DNA of 44,960 nucleotides from an uncultured Tissierellaceae bacterium (GTDB lineage: Bacteria > Bacillota > Clostridia > Tissierellales > Tissierellaceae): assembly GCA_964477045.1 (NCBI GenBank), contig CAYZDC010000001.1:1-44960 (forward strand), given 5' to 3'. The translations under genes were made by a program, and so were the position numbers. This document shows, one piece after another, positions 1-34,594 of this stretch. The first letter of the stretch is position 1, and each line of letters starts with the position of its first letter. The notes under the pieces are model-generated. The model had not been told where the DNA came from. It ran no database searches and saw only the letters and a program-made list of their open reading frames with translations.

Positions 1-61
1 GCCCCCTTAATAATTCAGCTATTTTCCATATAAAACTTATCTTGTCATTAAAATTAACCAT
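1..61 (-). CDS. N-terminal 20 codons (gene runs off the left edge) of an N6-adenine DNA methyltransferase, type I R-M HsdM-like
   Basis: Hand translation of the minus strand from the ATG at 61..59 gives MVNFNDKISFIWKIAELLRG. The F-I-W-x-I-A-x-L-L-R-G string is the characteristic N-terminal motif of HsdM-type methylases. AGGAGG RBS (plus-strand cctcct, 72-77) lies 10 nt upstream. Only 20 aa are visible, so the family call is tentative. Confidence 0.45.
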   Translation of the reverse strand, partial: MVNFNDKISFIWKIAELLRG

Positions 62-127
62 TTATGCTATACCTCCTATTGTAATCATATTAGATATTAT
101 TATATCATTAAAGCTAATGAAAACAAT

Positions 128-2119
128 TTAACTAAGTTTGTCTTTTATTATACCTAAAATCCCACTCTCTTTTTTAAAATCAATGTTAAAGAATTCAGAA
201 GCTTTGTCTAAATCCATTATTATATATTTGCTAGATTTTTTAGCATATATATCTTCTGGAAGTTCTTTTAATATCCTATCAGCTTCCCAAGTCTCTGCTG
301 CATTATATATAAGTTGAGAATGTCTTTTCTTAATTTCAAATGCTTTTCTATTAACCTGCCAAGCTCTTTGAATAGTCTCAATAGCTTGAGAACCAGTAAC
401 TTTTTCATTGAAGTAGTCATCTAAAGTTAATAGTCTAATGTAATCTGGTAAATCTCCATTATAATGTTCTCTTAGAATTTCATAAATTATAAGAGATGAT
501 TCTTCTAATAAGTCTACAGCCCCTTCTAGTTCTTCATTCTTTAAATCCTCTATAAGTTCTGGCATTATAGTTAACATTCTTTTTAAGTATTCTCTATAAA
601 AAGCAGTCCCTATATTGTTTTGTACTCGTCTAACAATACGAGTTTTCATAATATCTGTATTCGTTAAGCCAGCTTGTACATTACATATTACGGTTCTTCT
701 TATAATTTCTGCTGCAACTGCTTTAACGTCCTCATTTGCGCTAATTACAATTGCAGGATAGGTATTATCATTATCTAGTACTCCAAAGTCATCATTTTTG
801 ATTGTTTCTATGGCGTGGTTTTTAAATCTTGCGTGAGTTAAGTCGTCTACTATAATTGGGGCTCCTTTTACAGTTCTTCTTAAATTGTCTATACTAGTTC
901 TTGTGAAATCCGGAGCAGACATTTTTGGTTTTTGTCCTATCATCATTTTAAGTAAAGTTTCTAAAAATGTAGTTTTACCCGCTTTTGACTGACCATATAT
1001 TAACCCGAATACTGGATATGGCAATAGGTTTTGGTTATGTTTTACAGCCATATTTCGCATTAATGCCATAAAAGGACTTGTCAGAAACCAAATAGCAAAA
1101 CTATAATATTTCATTTGCATTCCTACTACATCTCCATGAAATTTTTTATAGCCTTCCATATATTCTATAAATAAATCTACATCATTTTTTATTTCTTCAT
1201 TATTAGGGTTTAGATTTAATTCGTCCTCATTAAGTGTCACTTTTGAATTTTCAATATCTATAATTAAATGTGGATATTCACTCCTTAACTCTTTTTCTTG
1301 AATACTTGCATCTATAATTTTTCTTCTAGTTTGAATCATTACCTCTGGTGATAAACTAATTTTCCCTTTCTTATCTACTCTCGGCATATAGGAAGATATT
1401 TTATTTGCTAAGTTCTTTACATCAAGTACAAATTTAATTTCTTCTCGTTGAGATATATCTGGTTCAATTACCATTGCTTTTTTAATTTTTATTGTTTGAT
1501 TTATTGGTAACTCCTCTAAATTATCCTTATCAGAAACTGATAGGGCTGATACAGTTATATCATCAGAACTTGATTGTTTTAAATCAGTATAGCTATTAAA
1601 ATACCAATCAAATGCCCTGTCCCCATCTGTATAACTAATATTCTCTCTTTGTCTACCTGTAAAAGCAGAATAAGACATATTGGCAGAACCTGAAATTACT
1701 CTTTTTCTACCATCATATGATTCTAGCAAGTAAATCTTCTCATGAGATAACTTTTGTCTAGCAACATACAATTTTAATTTATTGTCATCAATTTTTGAAA
1801 TTAAATCAATCTTGTTTTTATTTGTAGTTTCTTTTAATCTTTTAATAGTCTCCTGCTGAAAAGCCATAATTTCTTGTAGGTTATATGACATAACCCCTTC
1901 AAAACCAAAAATGACTTCTGTATATTCAAATAAGTTTAAAAGTTCACACATAAATCCCATACCTGATGAGTAAGTTATAGCATAAAGTTTGTCATACCCC
2001 TTAAATAATTCTTGCCAGGTTAAGACTTCTGCACCAATAAATTCCATTTGCACTACATCCAGTTTTGAATTATCTTCTATCTTTTCATTTAAGAAATTCA
2101 TTTCTTGTCTTTCATTCAT
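128..2119 (-). CDS. Fusion protein: N-terminal single-HKD phospholipase-D-family nuclease domain plus C-terminal SF3/VirE/D5-like P-loop NTPase
   Basis: 663-aa ORF. HKD motif SHEKIYLLE..ISGSANMS (res 125-148, nt ~1679-1744). Walker A GQSKAGKT (res 376-383, nt 971-994). Walker B PIIVDDL (res 421-427). IVISAN (motif-C-like) followed by IIRRTV. RBS AAAGGTGG upstream of the ATG at 2119. Confidence 0.7.
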   Translation of the reverse strand: MNERQEMNFLNEKIEDNSKLDVVQMEFIGAEVLTWQELFKGYDKLYAITYSSGMGFMCELLNLFEYTEVIFGFEGVMSYNLQEIMAFQQETIKRLKETTNKNKIDLISKIDDNKLKLYVARQKLSHEKIYLLESYDGRKRVISGSANMSYSAFTGRQRENISYTDGDRAFDWYFNSYTDLKQSSSDDITVSALSVSDKDNLEELPINQTIKIKKAMVIEPDISQREEIKFVLDVKNLANKISSYMPRVDKKGKISLSPEVMIQTRRKIIDASIQEKELRSEYPHLIIDIENSKVTLNEDELNLNPNNEEIKNDVDLFIEYMEGYKKFHGDVVGMQMKYYSFAIWFLTSPFMALMRNMAVKHNQNLLPYPVFGLIYGQSKAGKTTFLETLLKMMIGQKPKMSAPDFTRTSIDNLRRTVKGAPIIVDDLTHARFKNHAIETIKNDDFGVLDNDNTYPAIVISANEDVKAVAAEIIRRTVICNVQAGLTNTDIMKTRIVRRVQNNIGTAFYREYLKRMLTIMPELIEDLKNEELEGAVDLLEESSLIIYEILREHYNGDLPDYIRLLTLDDYFNEKVTGSQAIETIQRAWQVNRKAFEIKKRHSQLIYNAAETWEADRILKELPEDIYAKKSSKYIIMDLDKASEFFNIDFKKESGILGIIKDKLS

Positions 2120-2245: not shown

Positions 2246-2296
2246 AAAATACAAACTGAGTCTTCAGTTATGTACTGTAGACCCAGTTTGTATTTT
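2246..2296 (-). terminator. Rho-independent terminator after the 170-aa gene
   Basis: 17-nt arms AAAATACAAACTGAGTC / GACCCAGTTTGTATTTT. On the minus-strand RNA the only non-Watson-Crick pair is G-U, and the stem is followed by UUUUAUUAUC. Confidence 0.7.
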
Positions 2297-2301
2297 ATTT
2301 A

Positions 2302-2814
2302 TTATATCCACTTTTTAAAAAAGTTCCAATCATTTACAGTTCCATCTTCATTTAATAAATCTAAATATACACCGTCAGAAATTCCAACTTCCCAAATAGC
2401 TTGAGCATCTTCAATATTATTGGAAATTTTATGTTCTATAATATATTCATTAAATCTTTCTTGACCTTCTCCATAGCTTTCTGAAACATAAGCTACTAAA
2501 TAAATAGCTATGGCATTTGAACCTAAATCAAAAGGATCAGTTTTTAAAATATGTTCTCTAACCATATCAACCCATTTATCTTCTGATACGCGCAAAAGTC
2601 TCTTCCCTATGTTTTCAATACAATAGGAAGCATAGCATCTCTTTTCTTCTAATTCTAAATAGGTAAAATTACCCTCTGTTTCTTTTAAACTAATTAAGGT
2701 ATCTTCTAGTTTTCCTACTATTGGAATAACATCTTCAAATAAATTTCTACCCCTTATATTGTCAGGTAGATCAATTGGATGTGCTTGATTTCTAGTAAAA
2801 GCTTTTTTAGCCAT
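2302..2814 (-). CDS. Hypothetical protein (170 aa), no family recognised
   Basis: Clean ORF ending just before the terminator. No motif I can assign. Confidence 0.55.
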   Translation of the reverse strand: MAKKAFTRNQAHPIDLPDNIRGRNLFEDVIPIVGKLEDTLISLKETEGNFTYLELEEKRCYASYCIENIGKRLLRVSEDKWVDMVREHILKTDPFDLGSNAIAIYLVAYVSESYGEGQERFNEYIIEHKISNNIEDAQAIWEVGISDGVYLDLLNEDGTVNDWNFFKKWI

Positions 2815-2870: not shown

Positions 2871-3095
2871 TTAGTCCAATTCTAATTTATTTAAGATATC
2901 TCTAAGTTCTTTAATTTCATCTACATTGAATGTGACACCTTTACTCATCATTTTGTGATCAGGATCCCAGTCTCGTATATCATATTTTGGTGCATAGTTA
3001 TTCCATGCCACCATATTTATTTCTCTAGTCCATCCTTTTGAAGTTTCTGCTATAACCCCAATATTTTTAACTATTTCATATTTAATCTCTGCCAT
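2871..3095 (-). CDS. YdbC-like / PC4 (p15) family ssDNA-binding protein
   Basis: The 74-aa ORF carries KGWTREINMVAWNNYAPKYDIRDWDPDH..GKGVTF, which closely follows the bacterial YdbC PC4-like family pattern. RBS AAGGAGG upstream. Confidence 0.85.
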   Translation of the reverse strand: MAEIKYEIVKNIGVIAETSKGWTREINMVAWNNYAPKYDIRDWDPDHKMMSKGVTFNVDEIKELRDILNKLELD

Positions 3096-3192: not shown

Positions 3193-3876
3193 TTATCTGT
3201 GTAATGGAGAATAATCTGCATTGAAAAACAATTTATAGTTATCTATATCGTAGTCATATTCTTTTAACATTTTTACTATTAATTCACTATAACCATTAGC
3301 TGACATTGAAGTGGTTATATAAATTTTATTCATAATTTTTATTGGAAGAATCATGTTTGAGCTATCTTTGGAGAAATAATCTCTAAGTTCTCCATTCATT
3401 CTTGTTAGTTTTTCAAAACTTAAAAACTTTTTTTCGTCAATTTTTAATAACATTTCACAGGTTTTTATAAATATATCTTTCCAAGTACTTGCTAGGATTA
3501 ATTCATTATTATTAAATCTAAAACCATAGGGTCTAATATGTGTTAAATCTTCTAATAGACTGTGTTCTATAGTATTATCAACCCTGTATTGCTCATAGTT
3601 TGGATTTAACCTTTCTTCGGCATCAATCTTTTCATTTCTTAATTCACCCATAGTTAATTGTCCATAATTAATATCAAGGTCACTTTTTATATCTTCAATA
3701 ATTTTTGTTATATTGGTCAATTCCTGTATAAATTCATCTTTATTTTCTTCAAAACTATATACATCTATTATTATTTCAACTTTATTTTTAAGCTCGCTAA
3801 TTAGATTTGAAATATAGATTGCATCTTCTGGGAAATCTTTTTTTATAGAACTGATTAACTTTTTAATAAGAATCAC
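3193..3876 (-). CDS. Hypothetical protein (227 aa): E/K/I-rich helical N-half and an unassigned C-terminal domain
   Basis: ORF track. The start is a GTG (plus-strand cac, 3874-3876) with only a weak GAGGTG-type RBS overlapping it, so the start is uncertain. Confidence 0.55.
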   Translation of the reverse strand: MILIKKLISSIKKDFPEDAIYISNLISELKNKVEIIIDVYSFEENKDEFIQELTNITKIIEDIKSDLDINYGQLTMGELRNEKIDAEERLNPNYEQYRVDNTIEHSLLEDLTHIRPYGFRFNNNELILASTWKDIFIKTCEMLLKIDEKKFLSFEKLTRMNGELRDYFSKDSSNMILPIKIMNKIYITTSMSANGYSELIVKMLKEYDYDIDNYKLFFNADYSPLHR

Positions 3877-4083: not shown

Positions 4084-4518
4084 ATGAAGAAAATTTTAGT
4101 CCCTGTAGATGGTTCGGATAATGGTAAAAAAGCGTTAATGAAAGCTAAGAGTATAGGAACAGCATTTAATAGTGAAATCACAATAGTATATATTATGGAT
4201 GATGTTTCAGGTATATCTTCTTTTAATATTACTGATTATCAAACTTACAAAGAGCCTTTAACAGATGCATTTAGACAACATGCTAGAAAAATACTAGATG
4301 ATGCCATGGAAAATTTTAAAGATTACAATAATAAGGTAGATACATTAATTGAACAAGGAAATCCAGCATATAAGTTATTAGAAATCTCAGAAGAAGGAGA
4401 CTATGATCTTATTGTAATTGGTAGTAGAGGCTTGGGTCCTTTTTCTAGAGCAGTTATGGGTAGCGTTTCTAATAAAGTAGTACATCATGCCAAGATGTCT
4501 GTTTTAGTAGTTAAATAG
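4084..4518 (+). CDS. Universal stress protein (UspA family), copy 1
   Basis: KILVPVDGS..., GSRGLGPFSRAVMGSVSNKVVHHAKMSVLVV. RBS AAAGGATG upstream. Confidence 0.9.
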   Translation: MKKILVPVDGSDNGKKALMKAKSIGTAFNSEITIVYIMDDVSGISSFNITDYQTYKEPLTDAFRQHARKILDDAMENFKDYNNKVDTLIEQGNPAYKLLEISEEGDYDLIVIGSRGLGPFSRAVMGSVSNKVVHHAKMSVLVVK

Positions 4519-4533: not shown

Positions 4534-4968
4534 ATGGAAAAAATCCTAGTAGCTATAGATGGTTCAGAAACTGGTAATAAAGCCTTGCTCAAAGCAAAGG
4601 CAATGGGAACAGCTTTTAGAAGTGAAATCACAATACTATATGTAATGGAATATGCTTCAAGTCTATATTCTGTATATATGTCTGAGAACAAGATTAATAC
4701 AGATCCTTTAAATGAGGCATATAAAGAGCATGCTATGGAAGTACTTAATAATGCATTGGAAAATTTTAAAGATTATAATTATAAGGTATGTACATTACTT
4801 AAGAAAGGCAATCCTGCATTTAAAATACTTGAAGTTTCAGAAGAAGGAGATTTTGATCTCTTAATAATTGGTAGTAGAGGGTTAGGTCCTTTTTCCAGAG
4901 CAATTATGGGTAGTGTATCTACTAAAGTTTTAAATAATGCAAAGATATCAGTATTAGTAGTTAAATAA
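4534..4968 (+). CDS. Universal stress protein (UspA family), copy 2, tandem paralog
   Basis: Same length (144 aa) and collinear with copy 1. GSRGLGPFSRAIMGSVSTKVLNNAKISVLVV. 15-nt spacer with its own RBS GAGAGGATGG. Confidence 0.9.
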   Translation: MEKILVAIDGSETGNKALLKAKAMGTAFRSEITILYVMEYASSLYSVYMSENKINTDPLNEAYKEHAMEVLNNALENFKDYNYKVCTLLKKGNPAFKILEVSEEGDFDLLIIGSRGLGPFSRAIMGSVSTKVLNNAKISVLVVK

Positions 4969-19051: not shown

Positions 19052-19330
19052 CTAAAAGCTCATATTATTTTTAATATATTCTTCTAATTTCTTGTCATTT
19101 ACTGCAGTTATTTTTTTGTTTATATAATCATAACCATTTGGTCTATGAGGAATTATACAATTTGAACAATCTTTTACACCATAATTCATTATATATTTGC
19201 CTCCACAATCTTCTAGTAGGTATAGTGGACAGTAGCAAAACATACAATTAAATTCTTCCACATTATCTATCTTGTGGCAAGGTAAGTATTGGCAATCTTT
19301 GTTTGTATAAAATCTATATGAATTTTCCAT
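19052..19330 (-). CDS. Cysteine-rich small domain protein (PF04071-type, B12-cluster associated)
   Basis: CQYLPCH...FNCMFCYCPLY...CGG...DCSNCIIPH. ATG at 19330 with GGAGG 6 nt upstream is preferred over the ORF-track start at 19357. It overlaps the cbiJ 3' end by 17 nt. Confidence 0.8.
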   Translation of the reverse strand: MENSYRFYTNKDCQYLPCHKIDNVEEFNCMFCYCPLYLLEDCGGKYIMNYGVKDCSNCIIPHRPNGYDYINKKITAVNDKKLEEYIKNNMSF

Positions 19331-20078
19331 TCTTTTCCTCCAATCTTTTATGTTCATTTCTAATGATTTCTTCTATTATTTTTAAATCACATATACCTTT
19401 TTCTGCATCTCTACCAATTATTATAGGTACTACTCCTAACTCCTTACAGGCTTGTATTTTTTCTTCAGTACCACCTGGTTTCCCACTATCTTTCATTATA
19501 CAATAATCTGCTTTGTATTCACTAAGCATTGTCTTATTGAATTCCAATGAAAATGGCCCTAGTATTGCTACAATATCTCTCATATGGATGTTGTTCATTT
19601 TGCAAATCTCTAAGCTCTCCATAGCTGGTAGAATTCTATATACAAATTTGTTTGTTCCTCTTATCTTTTCAAAGTCTCCAATGTTTTTAGAGCCTGTGGT
19701 AAATAAAACTGTTCCATTGATTTTTGATAAAAATTCATAAGCTTCTTCATAATTTTTTAGATAAATTGCATTATAAGTTTTTTTGCTTATATTCCTTATA
19801 TATCTAATATATGATATATTTAATTCTTTAGCAACTTTTTTTCCATTGTCAGAAACTATTTTAGCATAGGGATGGGTTAAATCAACTATCATAGTTATTT
19901 TATTTTCTTTCCCAAAGTTAACCATTTCATCATAGGTCATTCTACCCACTACTAAATTATTAATAGGAAAGAATTCTCGACCACCTTCTGTAGCAATTGT
20001 TACAAGAAAATTATCTAAGTCCTGTATACTTTCCACAATTATTCGTCCTTCACTTGTTCCTCCTATTATCCAAATCAT
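19314..20078 (-). CDS. cbiJ: Cobalt-precorrin-6A reductase
   Basis: MIWIIGGTSEGR N-terminus, CbiJ/CobK length, and operon context. Confidence 0.9.
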   Translation of the reverse strand: MIWIIGGTSEGRIIVESIQDLDNFLVTIATEGGREFFPINNLVVGRMTYDEMVNFGKENKITMIVDLTHPYAKIVSDNGKKVAKELNISYIRYIRNISKKTYNAIYLKNYEEAYEFLSKINGTVLFTTGSKNIGDFEKIRGTNKFVYRILPAMESLEICKMNNIHMRDIVAILGPFSLEFNKTMLSEYKADYCIMKDSGKPGGTEEKIQACKELGVVPIIIGRDAEKGICDLKIIEEIIRNEHKRLEEKNGKFI

Positions 20079-20797
20079 TTTATATTATATCCTCTCGGTG
20101 TTATAATCTTTCCATGTTTTATATAGGTATTAGTATTCCCTACTATTAAAACAGTTAACATATCTATATTAACATATTCTATATTCTCAAGTGTTGTAAC
20201 TGTAATTGACCTATTCTCTCTTCCTGAGTTTTTGACTATGCCTACAGGAGTATTAGACTTCCTATACTGTGCAATAATTTCTATAGCTTTTGATAAATGC
20301 TCTGCTCTTCCTTTTGACTTTGGGTTATAAATAGAAATAACAAAATCAGCATCAGCGGCTCTATGTAATCTTTTTTCTATTACTTCCCAAGGTGTTAATA
20401 AGTCACTAAGACTGATACTAGCGTAGTCATGCATTATAGGTGATCCTAATTCTGCAGCTGCTGAAAAGGCTGCGGTTACTCCTGGAATTATTTCTACTTC
20501 TATGTCTTCTGCCAGTTCTAAGATTGGACCTGCCATTCCATATAATCCTGCATCTCCAGTACTAATTATAGCAGTATTCTTACCTGCTTTTACCATTTCT
20601 ATGGCTTGTTTACATCTAAGTATTTCTCCCTTCATTCCTGTGGAAAATAATTCCTTTCCTTCTACTAGTTCACCTAAATAGTCTATATAGGGTGTATATC
20701 CTACTATTACATCACAGGCTTTAATTGTTTCTACTGCTTTAAAAGTCATATGTTCTGGCCCACCTGGACCTATTCCTATTACATATAATTTAGCCAT
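20075..20797 (-). CDS. cbiH: Cobalt-factor III / precorrin-3B C17-methyltransferase
   Basis: Tetrapyrrole methylase fold: YVIGIGPGGPEHMT, STGDAGLYGMAG. Confidence 0.9.
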   Translation of the reverse strand: MAKLYVIGIGPGGPEHMTFKAVETIKACDVIVGYTPYIDYLGELVEGKELFSTGMKGEILRCKQAIEMVKAGKNTAIISTGDAGLYGMAGPILELAEDIEVEIIPGVTAAFSAAAELGSPIMHDYASISLSDLLTPWEVIEKRLHRAADADFVISIYNPKSKGRAEHLSKAIEIIAQYRKSNTPVGIVKNSGRENRSITVTTLENIEYVNIDMLTVLIVGNTNTYIKHGKIITPRGYNIK

Positions 20798-21803
20798 TAT
20801 AATTCTCCTTTGAGATTGAAATTGTTATTCCATTATGCTTTGATTTTCTAATGATTAGTTCTCCACCTAAAAGATAGGCCGCCGGTTCAGACACAGAATA
20901 TACTCCTATAGTATCCTTTACAAATTGAGATTTTTGGAACATTTCTTCAACTTCTCTAATTTCTTCTACAGTGAATATTTTTAAGGAACAATTATAGAAT
21001 TCTGAAGCTTCTATAATTCCTCTTTCGTGTTTTTTTACTTCAACAGTACCTATGCTTTTAATACTATTAGAGGATAGCTTTGCCCCTTTAAGTGATGATT
21101 CAATAGCTTCTCTTATCTTATTAACTTCTATACCTTTTTTACAACCTATGCCTATATTTAAATTCTTTGGTCTTAGGATAGTGTGTGGAATATTTATATC
21201 CTTTATAATAGTTGAACTTATTATTATTAGTCCCTCTATATCTTTATGTACTATCTCTAATTCTTTTAATACTATTAAGTTATTATAATTTATTATATTC
21301 TTATCTTCAGAATAAAATCCTATTTTTTTACCATTTACCATCATTGATGTTAAAGCTGTTATAGAATCTAAATCCTCTATGTAATAATTATTCTTTTGAG
21401 CAAATAGGTCAATAGATTCTATGCCTCTGCTGTCAGATGCTGTAGTTATAATTGGCAGGGCATCCATTCTCTCACTAATATAATGGGTTAATTCATTGGC
21501 CCCTCCTATATGTCCTGATAGCAAAGATATAACATATTTAGAAAAATCATCTATAACAATAACTGCTGGATCTTTAGTTTTATGATTTATCAATGGATTT
21601 ATCATTCTTATAGCTATTCCTGTTGCACTAATAAATACTAAACCATCATAATTATTCCAAGCATAGGGGACAATTGATTTTATTCCTCCTTTTATTTCCG
21701 AATTATGATAATGATTAAATGTATAATCTTCATTCACTAATTGGACTAGCTTTTTGCCAATTATATTGCCCATATCTGTAAAAGAAAAACAAGCTATTTT
21801 CAT
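20790..21803 (-). CDS. cbiG: Cobalt-precorrin-5A hydrolase
   Basis: CbiG N/C domain pattern (LLSGHIGGANEL, GIGCKKG), between cbiF and cbiH. Confidence 0.88.
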   Translation of the reverse strand: MKIACFSFTDMGNIIGKKLVQLVNEDYTFNHYHNSEIKGGIKSIVPYAWNNYDGLVFISATGIAIRMINPLINHKTKDPAVIVIDDFSKYVISLLSGHIGGANELTHYISERMDALPIITTASDSRGIESIDLFAQKNNYYIEDLDSITALTSMMVNGKKIGFYSEDKNIINYNNLIVLKELEIVHKDIEGLIIISSTIIKDINIPHTILRPKNLNIGIGCKKGIEVNKIREAIESSLKGAKLSSNSIKSIGTVEVKKHERGIIEASEFYNCSLKIFTVEEIREVEEMFQKSQFVKDTIGVYSVSEPAAYLLGGELIIRKSKHNGITISISKENYNG

Positions 21804-22555
21804 TGGCTTGCCTTCCTAAATTTATGAGTAAATGTTGGATCATAAAGTTTTGATCTTTCATAGTCACCTTCTATAAAGTTTCCAACTAATATCTGAGCCA
21901 TTTTATTTATATTTTTATCTTTTACTTTTTTGCTTATATCTCCTAATGTTCCAAGTATAATCTCTTCATCTATCCATGAAGCTTTATATACAACAGCTAC
22001 AGGGATATTATAACTACCATAACCTTTAACTAATTGTTCTACAACTCTATCGATTTCTTGCACAGATAGAAAAATTGCCATTGAAGCCTTGTGACTTGCT
22101 AGACTTTCCAAATCCTCACCCTCTGGTACTGGAGTTCTTCCTTCTATTCTTGTAAGTATTACTGTTTGACTTACTGATGGTAGTGTAAATTCTTTTTTAA
22201 TAGATGCACATGCAGCAGTAAATGAACTTACCCCAGGTATTACTTCATAGGAAATATTTTTACTATCCAATATATCCATCTGCTCTCTAATGGCACCATA
22301 AATAGTTGGATCTCCTGTGTGAAGCCTAACTACTTTTAAACCCTTAACAAGAGATTTTTCCATTAATTGGACTACCTCTTCTAATGTCATTGATGCACTA
22401 TTATGAAAATCTGTTCCTTTTTTACAAAAGTCTAAATGTGCTTTAGATACTAAGCTACCAGCATAAATGACTACATCTGCATTCTCTAACAAATTTCTGC
22501 CTTTTATAGTTATTAAATCCACATTTCCTGGACCTGCTCCTACAAAACTAATCAT
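21800..22555 (-). CDS. cbiF: Cobalt-precorrin-4 C11-methyltransferase
   Basis: FVGAGPGNVDLITIKG, HTGDPTIYGA. Confidence 0.92.
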   Translation of the reverse strand: MISFVGAGPGNVDLITIKGRNLLENADVVIYAGSLVSKAHLDFCKKGTDFHNSASMTLEEVVQLMEKSLVKGLKVVRLHTGDPTIYGAIREQMDILDSKNISYEVIPGVSSFTAACASIKKEFTLPSVSQTVILTRIEGRTPVPEGEDLESLASHKASMAIFLSVQEIDRVVEQLVKGYGSYNIPVAVVYKASWIDEEIILGTLGDISKKVKDKNINKMAQILVGNFIEGDYERSKLYDPTFTHKFRKASQ

Positions 22556-23108
22556 TATTCTTCACTCCTTTAATTATAAATATAGGATTTTCACCTTTCA
22601 TAAGGCCTATTTTATCCATATATGAAGTTTGTACTAGCTGAGTTTCAATATTAATATAATTGTGAATTTTAAGTAATTCTATAAACTTAGTAGCATTATT
22701 TATGAGTATAAAGTTACCACATAATATTCCTCTATTATCTAAGTGAATATCCAAATATTGAAGTATTTCATCAACCTTGCCTCCACTTCCACCTAGAAAA
22801 CATTTATTAAATTTTTTATCTGGCAATTTATCCGGAGCATGTCCATTAATAATATCTATATTTAAATTAAATTTTTCCATATTTCTTTCTATGAGTTCTA
22901 ATGCCTCTTCTTCTCTTTCAATAGCCCAAACCTTTGCTCCCTGCAATGTAGCTTCTATGGAAATTGAACCTGTTCCTGCTCCTATGTCAAGTAATCTGTC
23001 GCCCTTCTCTATAGCTAAATATCCCATGGTTAAGATTCTAATGTTGAACTTAGTCATAGGTATATTTCCTCTTATAAAATCTTCATCTTTAATCCATTTC
23101 ATTTTCAA
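22548..23108 (-). CDS. cbiT: Cobalt-precorrin-6B C15-methyltransferase (decarboxylating)
   Basis: Class I SAM-MTase motif LDIGAGTGSISIE. ~186 aa, following cbiE. Confidence 0.9.
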   Translation of the reverse strand: MKMKWIKDEDFIRGNIPMTKFNIRILTMGYLAIEKGDRLLDIGAGTGSISIEATLQGAKVWAIEREEEALELIERNMEKFNLNIDIINGHAPDKLPDKKFNKCFLGGSGGKVDEILQYLDIHLDNRGILCGNFILINNATKFIELLKIHNYINIETQLVQTSYMDKIGLMKGENPIFIIKGVKNND

Positions 23109-23685
23109 TTACCACCACTCCAAGTGAAGAATAATCTTCTATTGCTTCACCTATATTTGATTCTATTATTTTTTCATTGTCATAAGAAAGATCAAAACCT
23201 ACAAACATTTTCCCTTTAATATTCAACTTTTGTAATTCATCTGAAATAAATTGTGGATTATTAACTTTGTCTATTAATACTATAGATAATCTATTTTCTT
23301 TTACAGATTGCAATCCTTTATTTCTTCCGTGAAGTGATATAAAGTTTGCTTCTTGCCAAGGTTGATTTAGTTTTGCCATAAGATATTGGAATGATGATAA
23401 ACCTGGAAGAACTTTAGTTACCTTGATTTTTTCTCTCTTTATAAAATCAACTATTCCAAAAAAATTTGGATCTCCCGAGGCTAAAAGAAGTGTATTTTCC
23501 CTGAGTTTTATGTAATCTAATATTTCATCTACTTTCTTAACTTCTATTATGTCATCTCTTATAGGGCTTAATGATTTAGCAACTCTAGGAAATGCTAAAA
23601 TATATTCTGCTTCTTTAATAGCCTCTAATACTTCCAAAGTTAAATACTTTGGATTTCCTGGTCCTATACCTGCAATAGTTAACAA
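23089..23685 (-). CDS. cbiE: Cobalt-precorrin-7 C5-methyltransferase
   Basis: Tetrapyrrole methylase fold: IAGIGPGNPKYLT, ASGDPNFFG. Confidence 0.9.
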   Translation of the reverse strand: MLTIAGIGPGNPKYLTLEVLEAIKEAEYILAFPRVAKSLSPIRDDIIEVKKVDEILDYIKLRENTLLLASGDPNFFGIVDFIKREKIKVTKVLPGLSSFQYLMAKLNQPWQEANFISLHGRNKGLQSVKENRLSIVLIDKVNNPQFISDELQKLNIKGKMFVGFDLSYDNEKIIESNIGEAIEDYSSLGVVVIENEMD

Positions 23686-24755
23686 AAGTCTACACCTCTT
23701 TTCATAGAATAAATAATTACTTTTACTTTATAGTCTTCATCTTTAAGGTATTTCTTAATCCTGATTTCTGCACCCTTCTCCATATGCTTTACTATGTCAC
23801 CATAGCCAGCTTCAATACAAATGTTTAACGCCTCTTCAGCAGTTATACATTTATTAATCTTTTCCAGTAATTCACTGGGAGCATTCATTAATGCTAAATA
23901 GTAAACAAAGGCTTCCATTCTTCCATCACAGACCTTACTATGGGTATTAAATACTCCTATGGATAGTTTAGAAAACTTACCTATATGTCCAATTAAAGTT
24001 ACTGACTTAAATCCTTTGTTATAAATGTATAAGAGACTATCACCTATAAAGTTGCTGATCTTAGTTCTAGGTTTGTCTATACCTAAGGTTGCAGAAACTT
24101 TCTCCCCATAATTTCCTGGAACAAGTACTATATGTTCATTGCCATATTGATCTAATAGCATATCTACTTCCATATATATGGTTTTTAGTATCGCGTCTTC
24201 ACTCATAGGATATACAATACCTTTTGTTCCTATAATAGATATCCCACCTTCTATTCCAATATATGAATTAAATGTTTTTTTACCTATTGATACTCCTTCA
24301 GGGGCATAAATCATAACATTGTAACCTTCAGAGCTTACCTCTCCTAATTCTTTTTTAATAGTTTCACATGGGACAGGATTAATAGCAGCTTGTCCAACTT
24401 CTCCAAATAATCCATTTCGAGTTATCCTACCAATGCCTATTCCACCATCTATAATTACTTGCCCATCCATTCTTTTGCTAACCTTAGAATATATTTCAAT
24501 TCCATCTGTATTATCTGGATCATCACCTGAATCTTTTATAATAGAACAAAGTGCATAATCTCTTCCAATTACTGGATTATGTACCTCTAGTTTAAGTTTG
24601 ATATTTGCAGGAGTATCTATTTCTACGTATTTTATAACTTTATCTGTTTCTAGCATAATAGCTGCAGCTTTTGAAGCGGCTGTAGCACAAGATCCTGTTG
24701 TATATCCACATCTTAAATTTTTGCCTTCTTTTATTACAAATAAATCTAAGGTCAT
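23679..24755 (-). CDS. cbiD: Cobalt-precorrin-5B C1-methyltransferase
   Basis: LRCGYTTGSCATAASKAA N-terminus, typical of CbiD. Confidence 0.92.
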   Translation of the reverse strand: MTLDLFVIKEGKNLRCGYTTGSCATAASKAAAIMLETDKVIKYVEIDTPANIKLKLEVHNPVIGRDYALCSIIKDSGDDPDNTDGIEIYSKVSKRMDGQVIIDGGIGIGRITRNGLFGEVGQAAINPVPCETIKKELGEVSSEGYNVMIYAPEGVSIGKKTFNSYIGIEGGISIIGTKGIVYPMSEDAILKTIYMEVDMLLDQYGNEHIVLVPGNYGEKVSATLGIDKPRTKISNFIGDSLLYIYNKGFKSVTLIGHIGKFSKLSIGVFNTHSKVCDGRMEAFVYYLALMNAPSELLEKINKCITAEEALNICIEAGYGDIVKHMEKGAEIRIKKYLKDEDYKVKVIIYSMKRGVDFC

Positions 24756-25372
24756 CTTCCCACAACCATATATAATAAAGCATTTATAATAGATGCCGCT
24801 ACATTACTTCCACCTTTGTTCCCTTCAGTTGATATTGATGATAGGTCAAATTCTCTTAGAAGTTCTTTTGATTCTGATGCTCCTACAAATCCTACAGGCA
24901 CTCCAACAATAAACTTTGGATTTAGTCTGCCCGCTTTAACATGTTCTAAGATTCTAAATAAGGCTGTAGGAGCATTGCCTATTACAAAGCAATCTATTCC
25001 ATTTGCTACTGCCATATCTACAGCACAAGCAGATCTAGTGGTCTCTAATTCCTTGGACATTTGAAAAACTTTTTCATCATCTATAAAACATTTAAGTTCG
25101 CAATTTGCTTTAATTAGTGCAGGTTTATTAATTCCCATATAAGACATTTTAGTATCAGTAAATATTGTAGTTCCTTTTGATATTTCAAATTTTGCCGATT
25201 CAATAAAATTTCCTTTAAAACAAATGATTTTTCTATAATCAAAATCACCTGTGGTATGAATCATTCTCTTAGCTATTATCATTTCTTCTTCAGAAAAATT
25301 TGTATCTCCCATAACCTTATCTATAATATCCATACTTTTATTTTCTATTGCCATTGGGTTTTTAATATACAT
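24752..25372 (-). CDS. cbiC: Cobalt-precorrin-8 methylmutase
   Basis: RMIHTTGDFDY, VIGNAPTAL. Confidence 0.92.
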   Translation of the reverse strand: MYIKNPMAIENKSMDIIDKVMGDTNFSEEEMIIAKRMIHTTGDFDYRKIICFKGNFIESAKFEISKGTTIFTDTKMSYMGINKPALIKANCELKCFIDDEKVFQMSKELETTRSACAVDMAVANGIDCFVIGNAPTALFRILEHVKAGRLNPKFIVGVPVGFVGASESKELLREFDLSSISTEGNKGGSNVAASIINALLYMVVGR

Positions 25373-26682
25373 TAATTCACATCCTTTTCAATTTTGCTAA
25401 GAAGATAATCTAAGGCTTCTTTATTTCCTAAAAAGTTTATATGCTGATAAATACCTAGTGCATTTTTATAAGAATATCCACACTTCCATTTTCTTTTACT
25501 CTTAGGTTTGGTAATTTGGAGAATTTGTCTTTCATCTGAATTAATAATAGAACGATGAAACTCCTGTCCTGTTAACCTGACTCCAGCTTTACCTAAAATG
25601 CAATCTTCTTCCAAGCTTATATTTACATATCCAAATCTTTGAAGCCTGTCTGTCATGGTGGATTTTCCAGAGAATATACCGCACATAGGATAATCTTCTA
25701 TAGTGTCTACTAAGTACATTAATCCTCCACCTTCAGCATACAAATATCCACCTGCTTCTACATAATCTCTAATTGACATAATCATTTGCTTATTTTTGGA
25801 TAACTGGTCTAAAAATAATTCTGGATACCCTCCACCTATGTATATCAAATCCGTTTCAGGTAAATAATTGTCATTTAAAGGAGAAAAGTATTCTATATTA
25901 CATTGTTCTTCTAATAGTTTAATATTCTCCTCATAATAAAAATTAAATGCATTATCATAAGCAATTGCAACTTTAATATTTCTTTTTTTACTATAGCTTT
26001 GTTTATTAACTATAATGTCTTTTGAAATTTCTATTATTCTATTAATATCAATAGTGTCTTCAACCATATTCCCTGCTTTAATAATTAACTTATCTAATTC
26101 CAAGTTTTCATCTGCTTGTAATAATCCTAAATTACGACTTTCAATATTTAGGCTTTCATCAAGAGGTAAAAATCCTAATACTTCTATATTGATATGATTT
26201 TCTACTTGTTCTTTTAACAACTTATACATAAACTCACTTGTTTTATTAAAGATTATTCCTTTAATTCTATTTTGTGAGAAATCTACCATTCCTTTTATCT
26301 TTGGAATAGCTGAAAACATTTCTCCCTTAGGTGAATAAATTAGTATAGATGGAATGTCCAATTCTTTTGAAATATCATAAGAAGAATTTTCATATGTATT
26401 ATATATTCCATCAAAATAACCCATAGCTCCTTCTATAACTCCAAAATCCCCATTATTCATCCCCAAGGATTCTTCCAGCCCCTCTTTTCCCATTAAGTGC
26501 ATATCTAAATTACTTGCCACTTTTCCAGAAGCTATACCAATATATTTTCTGTCTATAAAGTCTGGCCCTGTTTTAAAAGCTGATACATTAAATCCACGGT
26601 TTTTAATCTCTTTTATAATACCTAAGGTTACAACTGTTTTTCCTGTATTACTTGATGGCGCTGTAATCATTATAGTCTTCAT
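25372..26682 (-). CDS. cbiA: Cobyrinate a,c-diamide synthase (ATPase plus GATase domains present)
   Basis: APSSNTGKTVVTLGI, FKTGPDFID. Full-length at 436 aa, including the C-terminal amidotransferase part. Confidence 0.92.
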   Translation of the reverse strand: MKTIMITAPSSNTGKTVVTLGIIKEIKNRGFNVSAFKTGPDFIDRKYIGIASGKVASNLDMHLMGKEGLEESLGMNNGDFGVIEGAMGYFDGIYNTYENSSYDISKELDIPSILIYSPKGEMFSAIPKIKGMVDFSQNRIKGIIFNKTSEFMYKLLKEQVENHINIEVLGFLPLDESLNIESRNLGLLQADENLELDKLIIKAGNMVEDTIDINRIIEISKDIIVNKQSYSKKRNIKVAIAYDNAFNFYYEENIKLLEEQCNIEYFSPLNDNYLPETDLIYIGGGYPELFLDQLSKNKQMIMSIRDYVEAGGYLYAEGGGLMYLVDTIEDYPMCGIFSGKSTMTDRLQRFGYVNISLEEDCILGKAGVRLTGQEFHRSIINSDERQILQITKPKSKRKWKCGYSYKNALGIYQHINFLGNKEALDYLLSKIEKDVN

Positions 26683-27446
26683 TACAATATAGCCTCTAAA
26701 TGGTGGAAAAATATATCTTGAATCTGCTTTATTTGTCCCAGCCCACTAATTTTCGTATGAACTTCTATATTATTGGCCTCTAATATTCTTTTCCATGAAT
26801 CCTTCTCATCTGAAGCCATATCATTTATAGCATGATCTCCAGCCACCAACATAAAAGGTTTTAAGATTACCTCATTTATATTTTTCTTTTTTAATTCTAC
26901 TAATATATCCTCTATAGTTTTTTCTCCTTCTACAGTTGCAACAAATGCACTATCATAGCCATCTTTTCTTATAGCACTTTCTAATTTTTCGTAACTTGCA
27001 TCTGTACTGTGATCTGATCCATGACCCATAAATACTGTAGAAATTGACTTTGAAATATTTAAGGATTTGACTACATTTTCATAGTCTTCTTCGGAAGATA
27101 AAAGTGGCTTAGCAATTGTAATATTTATTTCTCCATTGCCTTTGGCAAAATCCTTGGCTTCTTTTAATATCTTTTCATATTCAATACCTTCAATGATTAA
27201 TAAAGGCTGTATATAAATCTGTGTTATTCCTGCTTCTTTCATTTTTTCTAATGCCTCTGTAGGATTGTAGTTATGTACATTATCTCTTTTCATAATACGA
27301 GATATGACTACTCTTGAAGTAAAAGCTCTAAGTACAAGGTAATCCGAAAACTGTTCCCTGGCTCTATTTTCTATGCTTTCAATACATAGCTTTCTAGTTT
27401 GTTCAAAGGTTGTACCAAAACTTACTATTATTATCCCTTTTTTCAT
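26682..27446 (-). CDS. cbiK: Sirohydrochlorin cobaltochelatase (anaerobic type)
   Basis: IIVSFGTT..., FMGHGSDH, VAGDHAINDM. Confidence 0.88.
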   Translation of the reverse strand: MKKGIIIVSFGTTFEQTRKLCIESIENRAREQFSDYLVLRAFTSRVVISRIMKRDNVHNYNPTEALEKMKEAGITQIYIQPLLIIEGIEYEKILKEAKDFAKGNGEINITIAKPLLSSEEDYENVVKSLNISKSISTVFMGHGSDHSTDASYEKLESAIRKDGYDSAFVATVEGEKTIEDILVELKKKNINEVILKPFMLVAGDHAINDMASDEKDSWKRILEANNIEVHTKISGLGQIKQIQDIFFHHLEAIL

Positions 27447-27465
27447 AATATCCTCTTTTCATAAT

Positions 27466-28248
27466 TTATTTATTAAAATCTTCCTCATTTTTATATAATG
27501 GCAAGCCAAACTTTTCATGAATTTTTACTAACCAAGGCTTATCTAATAGTGCCTTTTCAATTAACTGTGATTGAGTAAATACTTCTTCCGGTGTTCCTTC
27601 GCCAACTATCCTGCCTTCAGATAATACATAAATATAATCGCAGATTTCATATATGAAATCCATATTGTGGCTAGATACTATAAGTTTCTTTTCAATTTTT
27701 AATCCATTTATTATTTTTATCATTTCTTTTGTCATATTTGGATCTAATCCTGAAGTAGGTTCATCTAACAATAGTACTTCTGAGTTTAAAACCAAGGATC
27801 CTGCTATAGCCACTCTTTTCTTTTGGCCATAGCTTAAAAAATGAGTCGGTTTATCTACTAAATCAAGGGCATTTACAAGCTTTAAAGCATTTTCTACTTT
27901 TTCTTTTATGGCTTCTTCTGAATAATCTAAATTTCTAAGTACAAATGCTACGTCATCATATACTTTAGAATAAAATAGTTGTTTTTCCGGATCTTGAAAT
28001 ACCATTGTTACTTTCTTTCTATATTTTCTTAAGGATTTTTTATCATATTCTATTTTATTACCTTTAAATAAAACCCTTCCATTTGTAGGATGCAAAATTC
28101 CAATTATATTTAAAAATAAAGTGGATTTTCCTGATCCATTAGCTCCTATAACACCTATAGCCCTACCTTTATTTAAATCAAAGTTAATATCTACTAAGGC
28201 CTTTGTTCCATCTTCATAATTGTAATGTAATGAATTTATTTTTATCAT
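27466..28248 (-). CDS. cbiO: Cobalt ECF/ABC transporter ATPase
   Basis: GANGSGKST Walker A, LSYGQKKRVAIAG signature, LLLDEPTSGLD. Confidence 0.9.
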   Translation of the reverse strand: MIKINSLHYNYEDGTKALVDINFDLNKGRAIGVIGANGSGKSTLFLNIIGILHPTNGRVLFKGNKIEYDKKSLRKYRKKVTMVFQDPEKQLFYSKVYDDVAFVLRNLDYSEEAIKEKVENALKLVNALDLVDKPTHFLSYGQKKRVAIAGSLVLNSEVLLLDEPTSGLDPNMTKEMIKIINGLKIEKKLIVSSHNMDFIYEICDYIYVLSEGRIVGEGTPEEVFTQSQLIEKALLDKPWLVKIHEKFGLPLYKNEEDFNK

Positions 28249-28932
28249 TTAATCACCTATTTTAAAGTCCCCATCATATAGTTTGCATTCTAAGGTTATT
28301 ACCATATCTTTATATCGTAACATTAGCCTCAGAAACAAAGTCCTAAGCAAAAGAGAAGTAGATTTTAAGCTTTTCTTAAAACTGGAATATCCAAACTTTA
28401 TTTCTTGGCCTCTGCGAATTTCTCCTACTTCTTCTAAAAATATAAATATAGATCTATATATAAGTACTATTAATTCTATTAATATATTGGGTAACCGAAT
28501 TTTCTTAAAAACTTTTATTAAATTGTTTAGTGGTGTAGTAAAACCTAAGAAAAATGTAGCTGATATGGAAGCTAGGACTCTTGTTGTCAGTAATATTGAT
28601 ACATTGAAGGAACTTTCAGTTATACCCATATAAGTCTGAAATAGTTTAAGACTCCAAATATAAATATCTACTTTTGAAAAGCTAATCAATACGGTTAATA
28701 TGCTAAGGAGTAAAAAAGACATTGGGAGCATGAATATCTTTAAGTAATTTTTAAATGAAATACCTGCAACAATAGTAGTTAGAAAACTCATAACAAAGAA
28801 TATTGCAATATTTATATAATTATTATTTGCAATAGTAGTTAGTCCTAGGCTAAAAGCTACTATTGCAAATTTTATATATGGGTTACTATTTGCTAATTTA
28901 TTTGTATATGCATACCTATCTATTAGAAGCAA
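28249..28932 (-). CDS. cbiQ: Cobalt ECF transporter T component
   Basis: Polytopic membrane protein starting IDRYAY.... The ORF-track start (GTG 28983) would overlap cbiN by 68 nt. TTG at 28932, preceded by GGAGAGAGA, gives a 17-nt overlap and is preferred. Confidence 0.8.
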   Translation of the reverse strand: MLLIDRYAYTNKLANSNPYIKFAIVAFSLGLTTIANNNYINIAIFFVMSFLTTIVAGISFKNYLKIFMLPMSFLLLSILTVLISFSKVDIYIWSLKLFQTYMGITESSFNVSILLTTRVLASISATFFLGFTTPLNNLIKVFKKIRLPNILIELIVLIYRSIFIFLEEVGEIRRGQEIKFGYSSFKKSLKSTSLLLRTLFLRLMLRYKDMVITLECKLYDGDFKIGD

Positions 28933-29206
28933 TTTTACGTCTCTCTCTCCACATGCCAAAGATATATCCAAATACTCCTGCACCTATGGCTACTTGAAGG
29001 GAAAATAAAAGACTTTCTATTTCTCCACTTGGTGGTTCCCAGAATGGTTCTACCCAAGGTTCATAATCAGGATTAATTTCTCCTATTACATCTTCTGCCT
29101 GCCCATCTGCTCCTTCAAATTCAGAGTCGCCCATAAATATTAATGGAACTAACACAATAACTACTACTAATAGTAATAAAACTAAATTAATCTTAGATGT
29201 TTTCAA
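28916..29206 (-). CDS. cbiN: Cobalt transport protein CbiN
   Basis: ~96 aa with two TM segments. EGADGQAE...[22 protein letters not shown]. Confidence 0.9.
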
Positions 29207-29927
29207 TAGTAATCACTCCTTCTCTATTATATTCTACCAACAAGTTGTAAATTATTGCTGTAAGCAGACCTTCTACTATTGCCAAAGGAATTTGAGTTAC
29301 GGCAAATACTGTTAAAAATTTTGCAAGTGAGCCTAATAGCCCTGAAACCGGGTCATGAAATACCAAAGACAATTGAACTGCTGTAACAACATAAGTGGTT
29401 AGATTTCCAACTGCAGCAGCTAAAAACACTATAAAAGCTTTGTTGATTTTAGTTGTCTTTAGCCCAATATAAATACCATAACTTACTATAGGACCTACTA
29501 TAGCCATTGAAAATACATTGGCTCCTAAGGTGGTTAGACCTCCATGTGCAAGCAATATGGCTTGAAAAAGTAATACTATAGTTCCTACTACAGTCATAAT
29601 AGTTGGCCCAAATAAAATAGCTCCAAGACCTACTCCCGTAGGATGAGAACAACTTCCTGTAACTGAGGGTATTTTTAAAGCTGATAATACAAATACAAAT
29701 CCACCTACTAATCCTAATAATACTTTAGCATTAATATCTCCTTTATAAACTTTATTCATTTTATTAATGCCTAAAATTAAAAATGGAAGTGATATTAAGC
29801 CCCATAATATAGCCCACTTAGCTGGAAGAAATCCCTCCATAATATGCATTCCATGGCTAATACTTGGTGTAGAAAGTAATAATAATAAAACTCCTAACAT
29901 TAAACCTTGTTTTTTTCTCATAACCAT
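29193..29927 (-). CDS. cbiM: Cobalt ECF transporter S component CbiM
   Basis: The signal-like leader followed by MHIMEGFLP is the conserved CbiM N-terminus. Confidence 0.92.
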
Positions 29928-29934
29928 TCTCCTA

Positions 29935-30978
29935 TTATTTTATTTTTTTAAATATATTAATTAATTTTAAATTATTTTCTCTATTTTTGATGGCTATTCT
30001 TATATGGTTATTGCCTAGTTCTTTAAAGCTAGAACATTTTCTAATTACTATTCCATGCTTTAAGAAATGATTAAATAGGTAATCTTCATCCCACTTTTCC
30101 AGCTTAATTAATATATAATTTGTATGAGTTTCGTATACTTTAATGTTATTTAACTTTCTTAATCTATCCATTAAAAAGTCACGTTGCACTTCTATGTAGT
30201 CTTTGCTTTCATTTATATAATCTTTATCCTTAAAAATAAATTGACCAGCAATATCTGCTAAAGCATTTATACTCCAAGGTAATTCTATTTTAGATATTTC
30301 TTCTACCTTTAAACTAGATGCACAGCCATAGCCCAGCCTAATGCCAGGTAATGCAAAAAACTTTGTGGCAGCTCTTATTATCCCTAAAGACTTATAGTCA
30401 TTTCTTTTAAATATTTCTATAGAATCATAGTCCGGAGGTGCAAATTCGTAAAATGCTTCATCTAGTAATAAATAGGCATTTTTATTTTTTACTAGATTAT
30501 ATATTTGAAGCAAAACATGTTTTTCTATTCTAAGTCCTGTTGGATTATTTGGATTCCCTAGTATTAATAAATCCTCTTCTTGTAAAATTGTATTTAGCTT
30601 ATGTAGATCTATTGAGAAATCATCATTATACTTTAGCTTCACTACTTCTTTTCCATGAGCTATAGCTCTTTTCTCATACTCGGAAAATGCAGGAGTCATG
30701 ACAATAACTCTATTGGCTAGAATAATAAAGTTATTTATAATTTCTACTGCTCCATTACCTACTAATACATTTTTACTATTACACTGTAGGTATTTAGATA
30801 TGGATATTTTAAGTTTTCTATACTGAATATCTGGATATGATTCTAATGATTTAAAACTATTTATTAAAATTTCATCTAACCCCTTAGGAGGTCCTAATGG
30901 ATTAATATTGCTAGAAAAATCTATTAGTTCTCCATCATAATGGTGCTCGTAAGTTAGTAAATCTCCACCATGGTCCAT
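29935..30978 (-). CDS. cobD: L-threonine-O-3-phosphate decarboxylase (PLP, class I/II aminotransferase fold)
   Basis: HGGD...[13 protein letters not shown]-terminus, LGNPNNPTG, and the operon context. Confidence 0.85.
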
Positions 30979-30991
30979 GTTCTTTGCCTCC

Positions 30992-31771: not shown

Positions 31772-31774
31772 ATA

Positions 31775-32770: not shown

Positions 32771-32781
32771 AGCATCTCCTT

Positions 32782-34478: not shown

Positions 34479-34502
34479 AGTCTCTCCTTTCGATTTTAAA
34501 AT

Positions 34503-34534: not shown

Positions 34535-34594
34535 ACTTTTGCATATGACAATTAAAAATCACAAAAATAATAAGCCTCTCCTTCCCTCCGAAGG

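Follow-up and report, generated by a model that had tools for sequence, protein, structure and literature searches.

Gene and domain organization

The window considered here is a stretch of 44,960 bp that forms positions 1 to 44,960 of contig CAYZDC010000001.1 (assembly GCA_964477045.1), from an uncultured Tissierellaceae bacterium. Close to its start lies a complete open reading frame (ORF) on the reverse strand (128..2119 (-)), referred to below as the target gene, which encodes a protein of 663 amino acids (aa) composed of a PLD nuclease, a linker, a helical/beta middle domain, an SF3-like AAA+ ATPase and a C-terminal helical/winged-helix-like domain. By sequence comparison, the target is placed in the TrgA / PLD-Aq_aa27 family, known through one genetic study, as a member that is both new and distant. 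Because of its many homologues and near-invariant key residues, the ORF is judged from its sequence to be a real gene and not a chance reading frame.

In a regular expression scan of the protein, HxK (H126), GSxN (G144), Walker A (G376) and hhhDD (I422) each occurred exactly once. The sole HxK and GSxN make up a single HKD motif in the N-terminal part, H126-E-K128 ... G144-S-A-N147 (1679..1744 (-)), as a first-pass annotation made from the letters of the window had described. Walker A (GQSKAGKT, from G376; 971-994 (-)) and Walker B (IIVDD, from I422; 842-856 (-)) are followed within the ATPase core by IVISAN (residues 457-462), with the sensor-1 motif ISAN at 734-745 (-), and by IIRRTV (residues 472-477), with Arg474-Arg475 at 695-700 (-). 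This order is the one reported in that annotation, and its positions for the HKD, Walker A and Walker B motifs (1679-1744, 971-994 and 842-856) were reproduced by recalculation from the ORF start.

The PLD (HKD) nuclease domain spans residues ~30-185 (1565..2032 (-)). It matched Pfam PF09565 (RE_NgoFVII) with 29.3 bits against a curated cut-off of 23.8, and PLDc_2 with 22.9 bits, under the cut-off of 27 for that model. In the AlphaFold2 (AF2) model of the whole protein, which has a mean pLDDT (the per-residue confidence score) of 72.5, this domain is moderately confident. Its best PDB match in a Foldseek search with the whole-protein model was R.NgoAVII (4rct; E 1.1e-4, probability 1.00), and further PLD folds matched were FAM83 and Nuc (1byr), both with probability 1.00. 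These matches support the earlier proposal of a PLD nuclease with one HKD motif, as in NgoFVII/NgoAVII. Nucleases of the Nuc/BfiI/NgoFVII type dimerise into one active site and cleave DNA independently of metal. For the target, the fold is assigned from sequence and model, and the activity is predicted.

Residues 196-232 (1424..1534 (-)) form a low-confidence linker (pLDDT <50) that is predicted to be disordered and carries a motif conserved in the alignment, EIPV..T.K.KKA. P205 is invariant, and T209, K214 and E219 are conserved in at least 90% of the sequences. In an oligomer, this segment may dock as a strand onto the adjacent subunit.

Residues 233-663 were also modelled alone with AF2 (pLDDT 80, predicted template modelling score (pTM) 0.72). 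This C-terminal module begins with the middle domain and the long helices before the ATPase core (residues 233-364; 1028..1423 (-)), a part that falls within the structural alignments to Cch and to primase-helicases described below. The P-loop ATPase core follows (residues 365-485; 665..1027 (-)), placed by its motifs, its conservation and Foldseek matches to SF3/D5-type helicases. The secondary structure of the model suggests that the remainder (residues 486-663; 131..664 (-)) forms a helical bundle and a small alpha/beta (winged-helix-like) domain.

Outside the N-terminal domain, the best PDB matches of the whole-protein model were SF3 helicases. The best PDB match of the C-terminal module in Foldseek was the SCCmec Cch helicase (5dgk; E 6e-4 over 410 columns), followed by the SaPI5 primase-helicase, JC virus (JCV) T antigen, African swine fever virus (ASFV) PrimPol, poxvirus D5, papillomavirus E1 and parvovirus NS1; SV40 T antigen was also among the structural matches. 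The best 50 matches among the predicted viral structures of BFVD were mostly phage primase-helicases (DUF927, COG3378 and D5 family), down to E 5e-7. The SF3-type order of motifs occurs in one AAA+ domain, with K382/T383, D425/D426, N462 and R475. The near-invariant K441 lies between Walker B and motif C, in the segment where SF3 helicases carry the B' motif or DNA-binding beta-hairpin; the models show a loop in this place, with no hairpin. At the sequence level, the family profile gave no meaningful match to any PDB chain, and searches of PHROGs and NCBIfam gave nothing significant. The best fit to the models is an AAA+ motor closest to the SF3/D5-type helicases; this wording is used rather than proven SF3 membership because the Foldseek TM-scores of the motor are low (0.2-0.35). 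The first-pass calls of a PLD domain and of a P-loop ATPase with SF3-like layout were thus both supported when AlphaFold models were compared with Foldseek, and the closest structural relatives of the C-terminal half are the SF3/D5-type helicases.

Family size, conservation and distribution

A word-indexed search returned more than 1,800 homologues of about 55-75% identity. The best 120 homologues are 60-100% identical to the target and nearly all are 650-710 aa long. In an exhaustive search of 50%-identity representatives, 908 clusters passed E<=1e-3 and 280 passed E<=1e-30, with the full-length architecture retained down to ~25% identity. Pfam PF27394 (Aq_aa27) covers the C-terminal two thirds of the target and is present on all listed homologues; these are precomputed assignments, as the model is more recent than the local copy of Pfam.

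Conservation was counted in 116 full-length representatives with 25-58% identity to the target. The HKD motif is kept in 112-113 of them (H126, K128 and S145 in 112 each, N147 in 113). In the ATPase, K382, N462 and R475 are present in all 116, K441 in 113 and D425 in 101, with Glu at this position in a further 8; D425 and D426 each hold an acidic residue (D or E) in no fewer than 109. From these near-invariant residues it follows that the nuclease and ATPase sites are both maintained, and the alignment indicates strong purifying selection on both. The fusion of nuclease and motor in one chain, as the first-pass annotation had it, is accordingly a property of the family, with both catalytic sites conserved.

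The family extends over Bacillota, Kiritimatiellota, Lentisphaerota, Spirochaetota and plasmids of Acetobacteraceae. None of 50,697 phage records matched, and one locus was found in IMG/VR. Copies 20-26% identical to the target are carried by 14 of 72,556 plasmids; in the sole plasmid region inspected, that of Acetobacter pasteurianus 386B, toxin-antitoxin and insertion sequence (IS) genes surround the copy.

The same C-terminal ATPase module was also seen behind other N-termini in five of the 50%-identity representatives (P0249, P0204, P0205, P0185 and P0235). One of these N-termini is T5orf172/MUG113 (GIY-YIG-like), one is SPFH, and several have no Pfam match. They may reflect effector swapping or fusions made in gene calling.

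Relationship to TrgA of Lactobacillus reuteri

The named relative of the target is TrgA of L. reuteri ATCC PTA 6475 (LAR_0821, 755 aa), whose gene was mutated in every high-transformation derivative of that strain (Ortiz-Velez et al. 2018, PMC6122466). A trgA null mutant was transformed at least 100-fold more by two pSH71-derived (rolling-circle) plasmids, and an hsdR null mutation of the adjacent type I system, added to the trgA null, gave no significant gain (PMC6122466). Plasmid re-isolated from an L. reuteri host was still restricted (PMC6122466). Transformant colonies of the wild type were small and uneven, and TrgA function was lost repeatedly under plasmid pressure (PMC6122466). The authors recognised solely a distant similarity of the TrgA N-terminus to BfiI/NgoFVII, not the ATPase, and could not exclude cooperation of TrgA with LreRMI (PMC6122466).

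The TrgA sequence was recovered by scanning metagenome contigs with a degenerate DNA pattern derived from the reading frame of the published recombineering oligonucleotide. The 755-aa ORF obtained (L097:4431-6698) agrees with all 16 published mutated residues and, like the target protein, carries a precomputed PF27394 match. Comparison of a 33-sequence family profile with TrgA in hhalign gave a probability of 94.9% (E 4.6e-8, 424 columns), and a hidden Markov model (HMM) of the 116 representatives scored 88.8 bits against TrgA (E 1.4e-29 for this single comparison), collinear over TrgA residues 31-557. Pairwise BLASTP of the two proteins was significant over the PLD region only.

Both proteins have, in the same order, a single-HKD PLD domain, a middle region, Walker A, Walker B, a sensor-1 Asn and an Arg-Arg pair; PF27394 lies on the C-terminal half, and restriction genes are found beside both. 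The catalytic residues align: TrgA H114, K116 and N134 pair with H126, K128 and N147 of the target, K407/S408 with K382/T383, D466/D467 with D425/D426, N503 with N462, and R522 with R475. TrgA differs in its length (755 aa vs 663 aa, with a longer C-terminus) and is ~20% identical to the target; the phenotype is on the side of TrgA only.

Published spontaneous missense mutations of TrgA, S408L, M502I and R522C, align to T383 in Walker A, to A461 beside the sensor-1 residue N462, and to the invariant R475, respectively. These mutations in a distant homologue are genetic evidence that the ATPase is needed for restriction.

In metagenome contigs of L. reuteri, trgA is found at a single place in the chromosome, upstream of a nucleoside hydrolase gene, and the slot upstream of trgA is filled by HsdS-HsdR, by two Mrr genes or by a 421-aa protein (L095, L096, L097, L100 and L102). 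The trgA hotspot is a small exchange site for defence genes. This change of upstream neighbour is a further argument for the autonomy of trgA.

The first-pass annotation had not recognised the architecture as any named defence system. That holds for PADLOC v2, which has no model for it: a search of PADLOC-DB v2 gave no full-length match to any system protein, and weak partial matches only, to MADS mad8 (4.6e-4, over the P-loop) and, over the HKD motif, to DISARM DrmC (1.9e-3) and Azaca ZacB (0.014). It does not hold for the literature at large, since the family is nevertheless tied at the profile level to TrgA, a homologue of the same architecture and a genetically defined barrier to plasmid transformation. 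No paper describing this architecture came up in literature searches on Aq_aa27, on PLD with SF3/D5 and defence, and on a PLD nuclease with an AAA+ hexamer. MANTIS/Gao_RL, an analysis of Dnd/Pbe, CoCoNuTs and a paper on metagenomic selection were set aside, as they concern other proteins.

Surroundings of the target gene in the window

The window opens with the first 20 codons of a neighbouring gene on the same strand (1..61 (-)), whose start at nt 61 lies 66 bp past the target stop; this ORF reads MVNFNDKISFIWKIAELLRG. Its family was assigned on longer contigs of the same sequence, where the ORF downstream of an identical target gene is the type I methyltransferase HsdM (HsdM_N at 2.5e-27, with N6_Mtase). 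The 66-bp spacer (62..127 (-)) contains an AGGAGG ribosome-binding site and neither a terminator-like site nor a stable fold (z = 0.01), so the first-pass reading of an HsdM-like start 66 bp downstream with no terminator between was confirmed.

Upstream of the target, a terminator-like hairpin (2246..2296 (-); -31.7 kcal/mol, z -10.7) follows a 170-aa ORF. It is AT-rich, with a near-perfect stem of 21 bp, and continues into a U-rich run, UUUUAUUAU. The consensus terminator scan missed it because its stem is GC-poor. Given this hairpin and the lack of a terminator in the spacer, the target, perhaps with hsdM, makes up its own transcription unit, and co-transcription of target and hsdM is plausible.

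All assemblies with this exact gene break inside hsdM, at differing points (ends of L001-L005, L010 and L011), and for this reason the rest of the putative type I system is out of view here. In a 99%-identical strain (L009, 12059-13261) the hsdM frame ends at codon 366 (…RRWIIEGQL*), ~130 aa short, and then gives way to unrelated sequence, of which no repeat was found in the window. In some strains hsdM may be interrupted, or a repeat or variable region may adjoin it.

Further upstream, a gene at 2871-3095 (-) encodes a 74-aa PC4/YdbC-like single-stranded DNA (ssDNA)-binding protein (Pfam PC4 6.9e-10; PHROG 'DNA binding protein' 8e-25). It is flanked on the strand of the target by two ORFs with no family match, at 2302-2814 (-) (170 aa) and 3193-3876 (-) (227 aa); in L010 a 68-aa ORF is called in place of the 227-aa ORF of other strains. 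None of these three ORFs recurs beside homologues of the target elsewhere. Two tandem paralogues of the universal stress protein (Usp), of 144 aa each (4084-4518 (+) and 4534-4968 (+)), stand just past the small island that holds the target. The remainder of the window is ordinary chromosome, with a cobalamin (cbi) cluster, transporters and a molybdoenzyme. A long same-strand cluster for anaerobic cobalamin synthesis and cobalt transport (~19300-36600 (-); CbiA/C/D/G/J/K/M/Q, CobD, CobS and tetrapyrrole methylases) confirms this ordinary chromosomal setting.

Neighbourhoods of homologous loci

Eighty homologous loci were taken from species-representative genomes, mostly of Clostridia and also of Kiritimatiellota, Lentisphaerota, Chitinispirillia, Verrucomicrobiota and Spirochaetota. 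Neighbouring ORFs were called with a simple in-house ORF caller, and genes within +/-6 positions were clustered and counted on 79 loci. No cluster that could be a fixed partner occurs in more than 15 of the 79 loci. The commonest, at 15 loci, is one of SF2 helicases and comprises SauUSI-like PLD-helicase-DUF3427 proteins and a 757-aa ResIII helicase.

An hsdM gene is adjacent at +1 in four loci (4/79), three of which (L053, L055 and L057) are close mutual relatives with an HsdM non-orthologous to that of the window. The gene order in L057 is GmrSD, target homologue, HsdM, HsdS, a 225-aa ORF and HsdR; the type I system there is complete without the target homologue. Other neighbours are McrBC (L006 and L033), Mrr, GmrSD, PglZ with BrxL (BREX), a Schlafen-type helicase (PDC-S41), NUDIX and MazG-like proteins. 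A recognised restriction or defence gene lies within 10 kb in at least 30 of the 79 loci, a lower bound that has no background control, and integrases lie within 10 kb in five.

A recurring cassette was observed in Oscillospiraceae and relatives (L039, L051, L063, L056, L044 and L008; for example L051:3601-12094), with a SauUSI-like PLD-helicase-DUF3427 gene, a NUDIX gene, the target homologue, one or two small MazG-like genes, the 757-aa ResIII helicase and a NucS-like gene. Nucleotide pyrophosphatases flank the target homologue in this cassette. The cassette was considered as a system and is taken instead as an inherited island, confined to related Oscillospiraceae.

The distribution is that of a solitary, horizontally moving gene that tends toward defence islands, not of a subunit of a fixed system, and the adjacency of target and hsdM in the window probably reflects co-location in a defence island.

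Comparison with known systems

NgoAVII/CglI systems consist of an R protein with a PLD and a B3-like domain, a separate N/H ATPase and a cognate methyltransferase, and their cleavage of DNA depends on NTP hydrolysis. Their PLD domain is the best structural and Pfam match of the target. In contrast to the target, they place nuclease and NTPase on separate chains, and the NTPase is SF2-like where that of the target is AAA+/SF3-like. No B3-like domain was detected in the target: the match to 4rct, of ~170 columns, is to the PLD part, and after residue 185 come the linker and the ATPase. Neither a separate ATPase subunit nor a C5-methyltransferase stands beside the target in the window, and no partner is constant in the 79 loci.

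SauUSI is a type IV ATP-dependent restriction enzyme made of PLD, SF2 helicase and DUF3427 parts. It resembles the target in joining an N-terminal PLD nuclease and an ATP-driven motor in one polypeptide, and SauUSI-like genes are frequent neighbours of target homologues. Its motor is an SF2 RecA tandem, whereas the target has a single AAA+/SF3-like domain that would have to oligomerise; the DUF3427/SRA-like reader of modified cytosine in SauUSI is not found in the target. McrBC is similar in concept, in that an oligomeric AAA+ motor is coupled to a nuclease that cuts foreign DNA, but it differs in being two proteins, with a GTP-specific motor of the McrB clade, a PD-(D/E)xK nuclease and a dedicated reader of modified DNA.

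SF3/D5 helicases (SCCmec Cch, SaPI5 primase-helicase, P4 alpha, poxvirus D5 and large T antigen) are the best fold matches of residues 233-663 and share with the target Walker A and B, the motif C Asn and then an Arg. They differ from it in that there is no sequence-level similarity, that the target has a nuclease in place of a primase or origin-binding domain, and that its context is not replicon-like.

Proposed function

The target is best read as a TrgA / PLD-Aq_aa27 family nuclease that would act autonomously, as a single polypeptide and in dependence on ATP, to restrict foreign DNA, that is plasmids and probably phages. A probability of roughly 60% is given to this reading, in which every functional statement on the target protein is an inference.

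AAA+/SF3-type domains work as rings, and SF3 helicases form hexamers that unwind in the 3'-5' direction. The ATPase module of the target would oligomerise on DNA, most likely as a hexamer as in SF3 helicases, and ATP hydrolysis would drive loading or translocation. Adjacent PLD domains would then pair into a composite HKD active site and cut the DNA; because there is one HKD motif per chain, at least a dimer would be required. Foreign DNA would probably be told apart by some property of its incoming or replicating state, for instance by ssDNA or fork intermediates, instead of by the lack of a methyl mark. With no linked methyltransferase, and with host-passaged plasmid left unprotected, discrimination as in classical restriction-modification (R-M) or type IV systems is unlikely.

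Replication intermediates of foreign replicons are an attractive idea for the recognised feature, which would fit the SF3 ancestry of the motor, the use of rolling-circle plasmids in the work on TrgA, and the small and uneven transformant colonies of the wild type. A more far-reaching version, possible but doubtful, is that bacteria captured an SF3/D5 replicative-helicase module and fused it to a PLD nuclease, giving a methylation-independent immune enzyme that destroys foreign replication intermediates (for example, ssDNA or forks of rolling-circle plasmids and phages). If this were true, the invader would be recognised by its mode of replication and not by the marks it carries.

Several points weigh against the reading of the target as an autonomous restriction nuclease. 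Purification of TrgA failed in the hands of its authors (PMC6122466), and its nuclease, ATPase and helicase activities are predicted. At ~20% identity between the two proteins, the transfer of function from TrgA to the target is inferred. For the motor, in addition to the low TM-scores, the AAA+ proteins RuvB and RFC (clamp loader) were only ~10-fold weaker matches of the C-terminal module in Foldseek, near E 5e-3. The identity of 54-60% across phyla is unusually high for a defence gene. The 79 loci are biased to relatives of at least 54% identity and are phylogenetically non-independent, and the defence counts made on them lack a background control. Many loci have housekeeping neighbours only, such as thrS, Tex, a glycyl-radical enzyme, a GH31 hydrolase and proBA.

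Among other explanations, the target could be a type IV, modification-dependent enzyme that cuts foreign-modified DNA, like SauUSI or McrBC. No cognate methyltransferase is linked to it, the type IV enzymes SauUSI-like, McrBC, Mrr and GmrSD are frequent neighbours, and the combination of nuclease and NTPase agrees with the logic of SauUSI and McrBC. Against this, neither Pfam nor Foldseek revealed a modified-base reader domain (SRA, DUF3427, YTH or similar), and TrgA still restricts plasmid re-isolated from the same host, which should be free of foreign marks (PMC6122466), so that this explanation is considered unlikely.

An abortive-infection effector is a still more doubtful alternative. Here the ATPase would sense a cue of infection and license indiscriminate degradation of DNA, including the host chromosome. 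A single-gene system with no self-marking component would suit such a role, and the repeated loss of TrgA under plasmid pressure, together with the small, uneven colonies, is compatible with a cost to the cell (PMC6122466). The small colonies are explained equally well by continued attack on the plasmid, however, and no sensor domain was identified in the target.

The first-pass annotation had instead suggested that the target may serve an R-M-like system as its restriction arm or as an accessory effector. For the type I-like system next to it, HsdM with HsdS would mark self and the target would cut unmodified DNA instead of, or alongside, HsdR. This explanation builds on the shared strand, the 66-bp gap and the missing terminator, and it can also draw on the loci L053, L055 and L057, with their non-orthologous HsdM at +1, and on TrgA of strain 6475, which directly adjoins a type I system (L097) and whose cooperation with LreRMI its authors could not exclude (PMC6122466). 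The counts made on the homologous loci do not bear it out: hsdM is adjacent in 4/79 loci only, L057 has a complete HsdM-HsdS-HsdR set of its own, and the obligate linkage to hsdM/hsdS without hsdR expected of an HsdR substitute is not seen. In other L. reuteri strains trgA stays in place beside two Mrr genes or the 421-aa unknown gene while its upstream neighbour changes, and strain L009, which is 99% identical, has an hsdM frame that ends early at codon 366. The effect of TrgA was the same in the hsdR null, and host-prepared plasmid was still restricted (PMC6122466). Overall, a role as the arm of an R-M system is very improbable.

Least probable of all is that the target serves a mobile element, and not host defence, in its replication or maintenance. 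It would then be an SF3 replicative helicase (cf. SCCmec Cch, SaPI and P4) in which a PLD domain for nicking or processing stands where a primase would be. In favour of this, the motor is structurally closest to the replicative helicases that mobile elements carry, 5/79 loci have an integrase within 10 kb, and a few large plasmids bear distant homologues amid toxin-antitoxin and IS genes. Against it, no integrase, primase or origin-binding protein is a constant companion in the 79 loci, many copies stand as lone insertions between housekeeping genes, phages essentially lack the family and plasmids rarely carry it, and the trgA null phenotype is a gain of transformation, not loss of an element (PMC6122466).

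Significance

The family of the target is large (908 clusters at 50% identity) and well conserved. Its sole studied member, TrgA, is the main barrier to the transformation of a probiotic Lactobacillus. The presence of an SF3-like ATPase in proteins of the TrgA type, a type of motor not previously tied to restriction, together with escape mutations in Walker A and at the Arg, leads to a concrete, testable mechanism. PADLOC v2 does not detect the family, which is a candidate for a defence system made of a single gene, and deletion or inhibition of genes of the target type could render hard-to-transform Clostridia and lactobacilli tractable.

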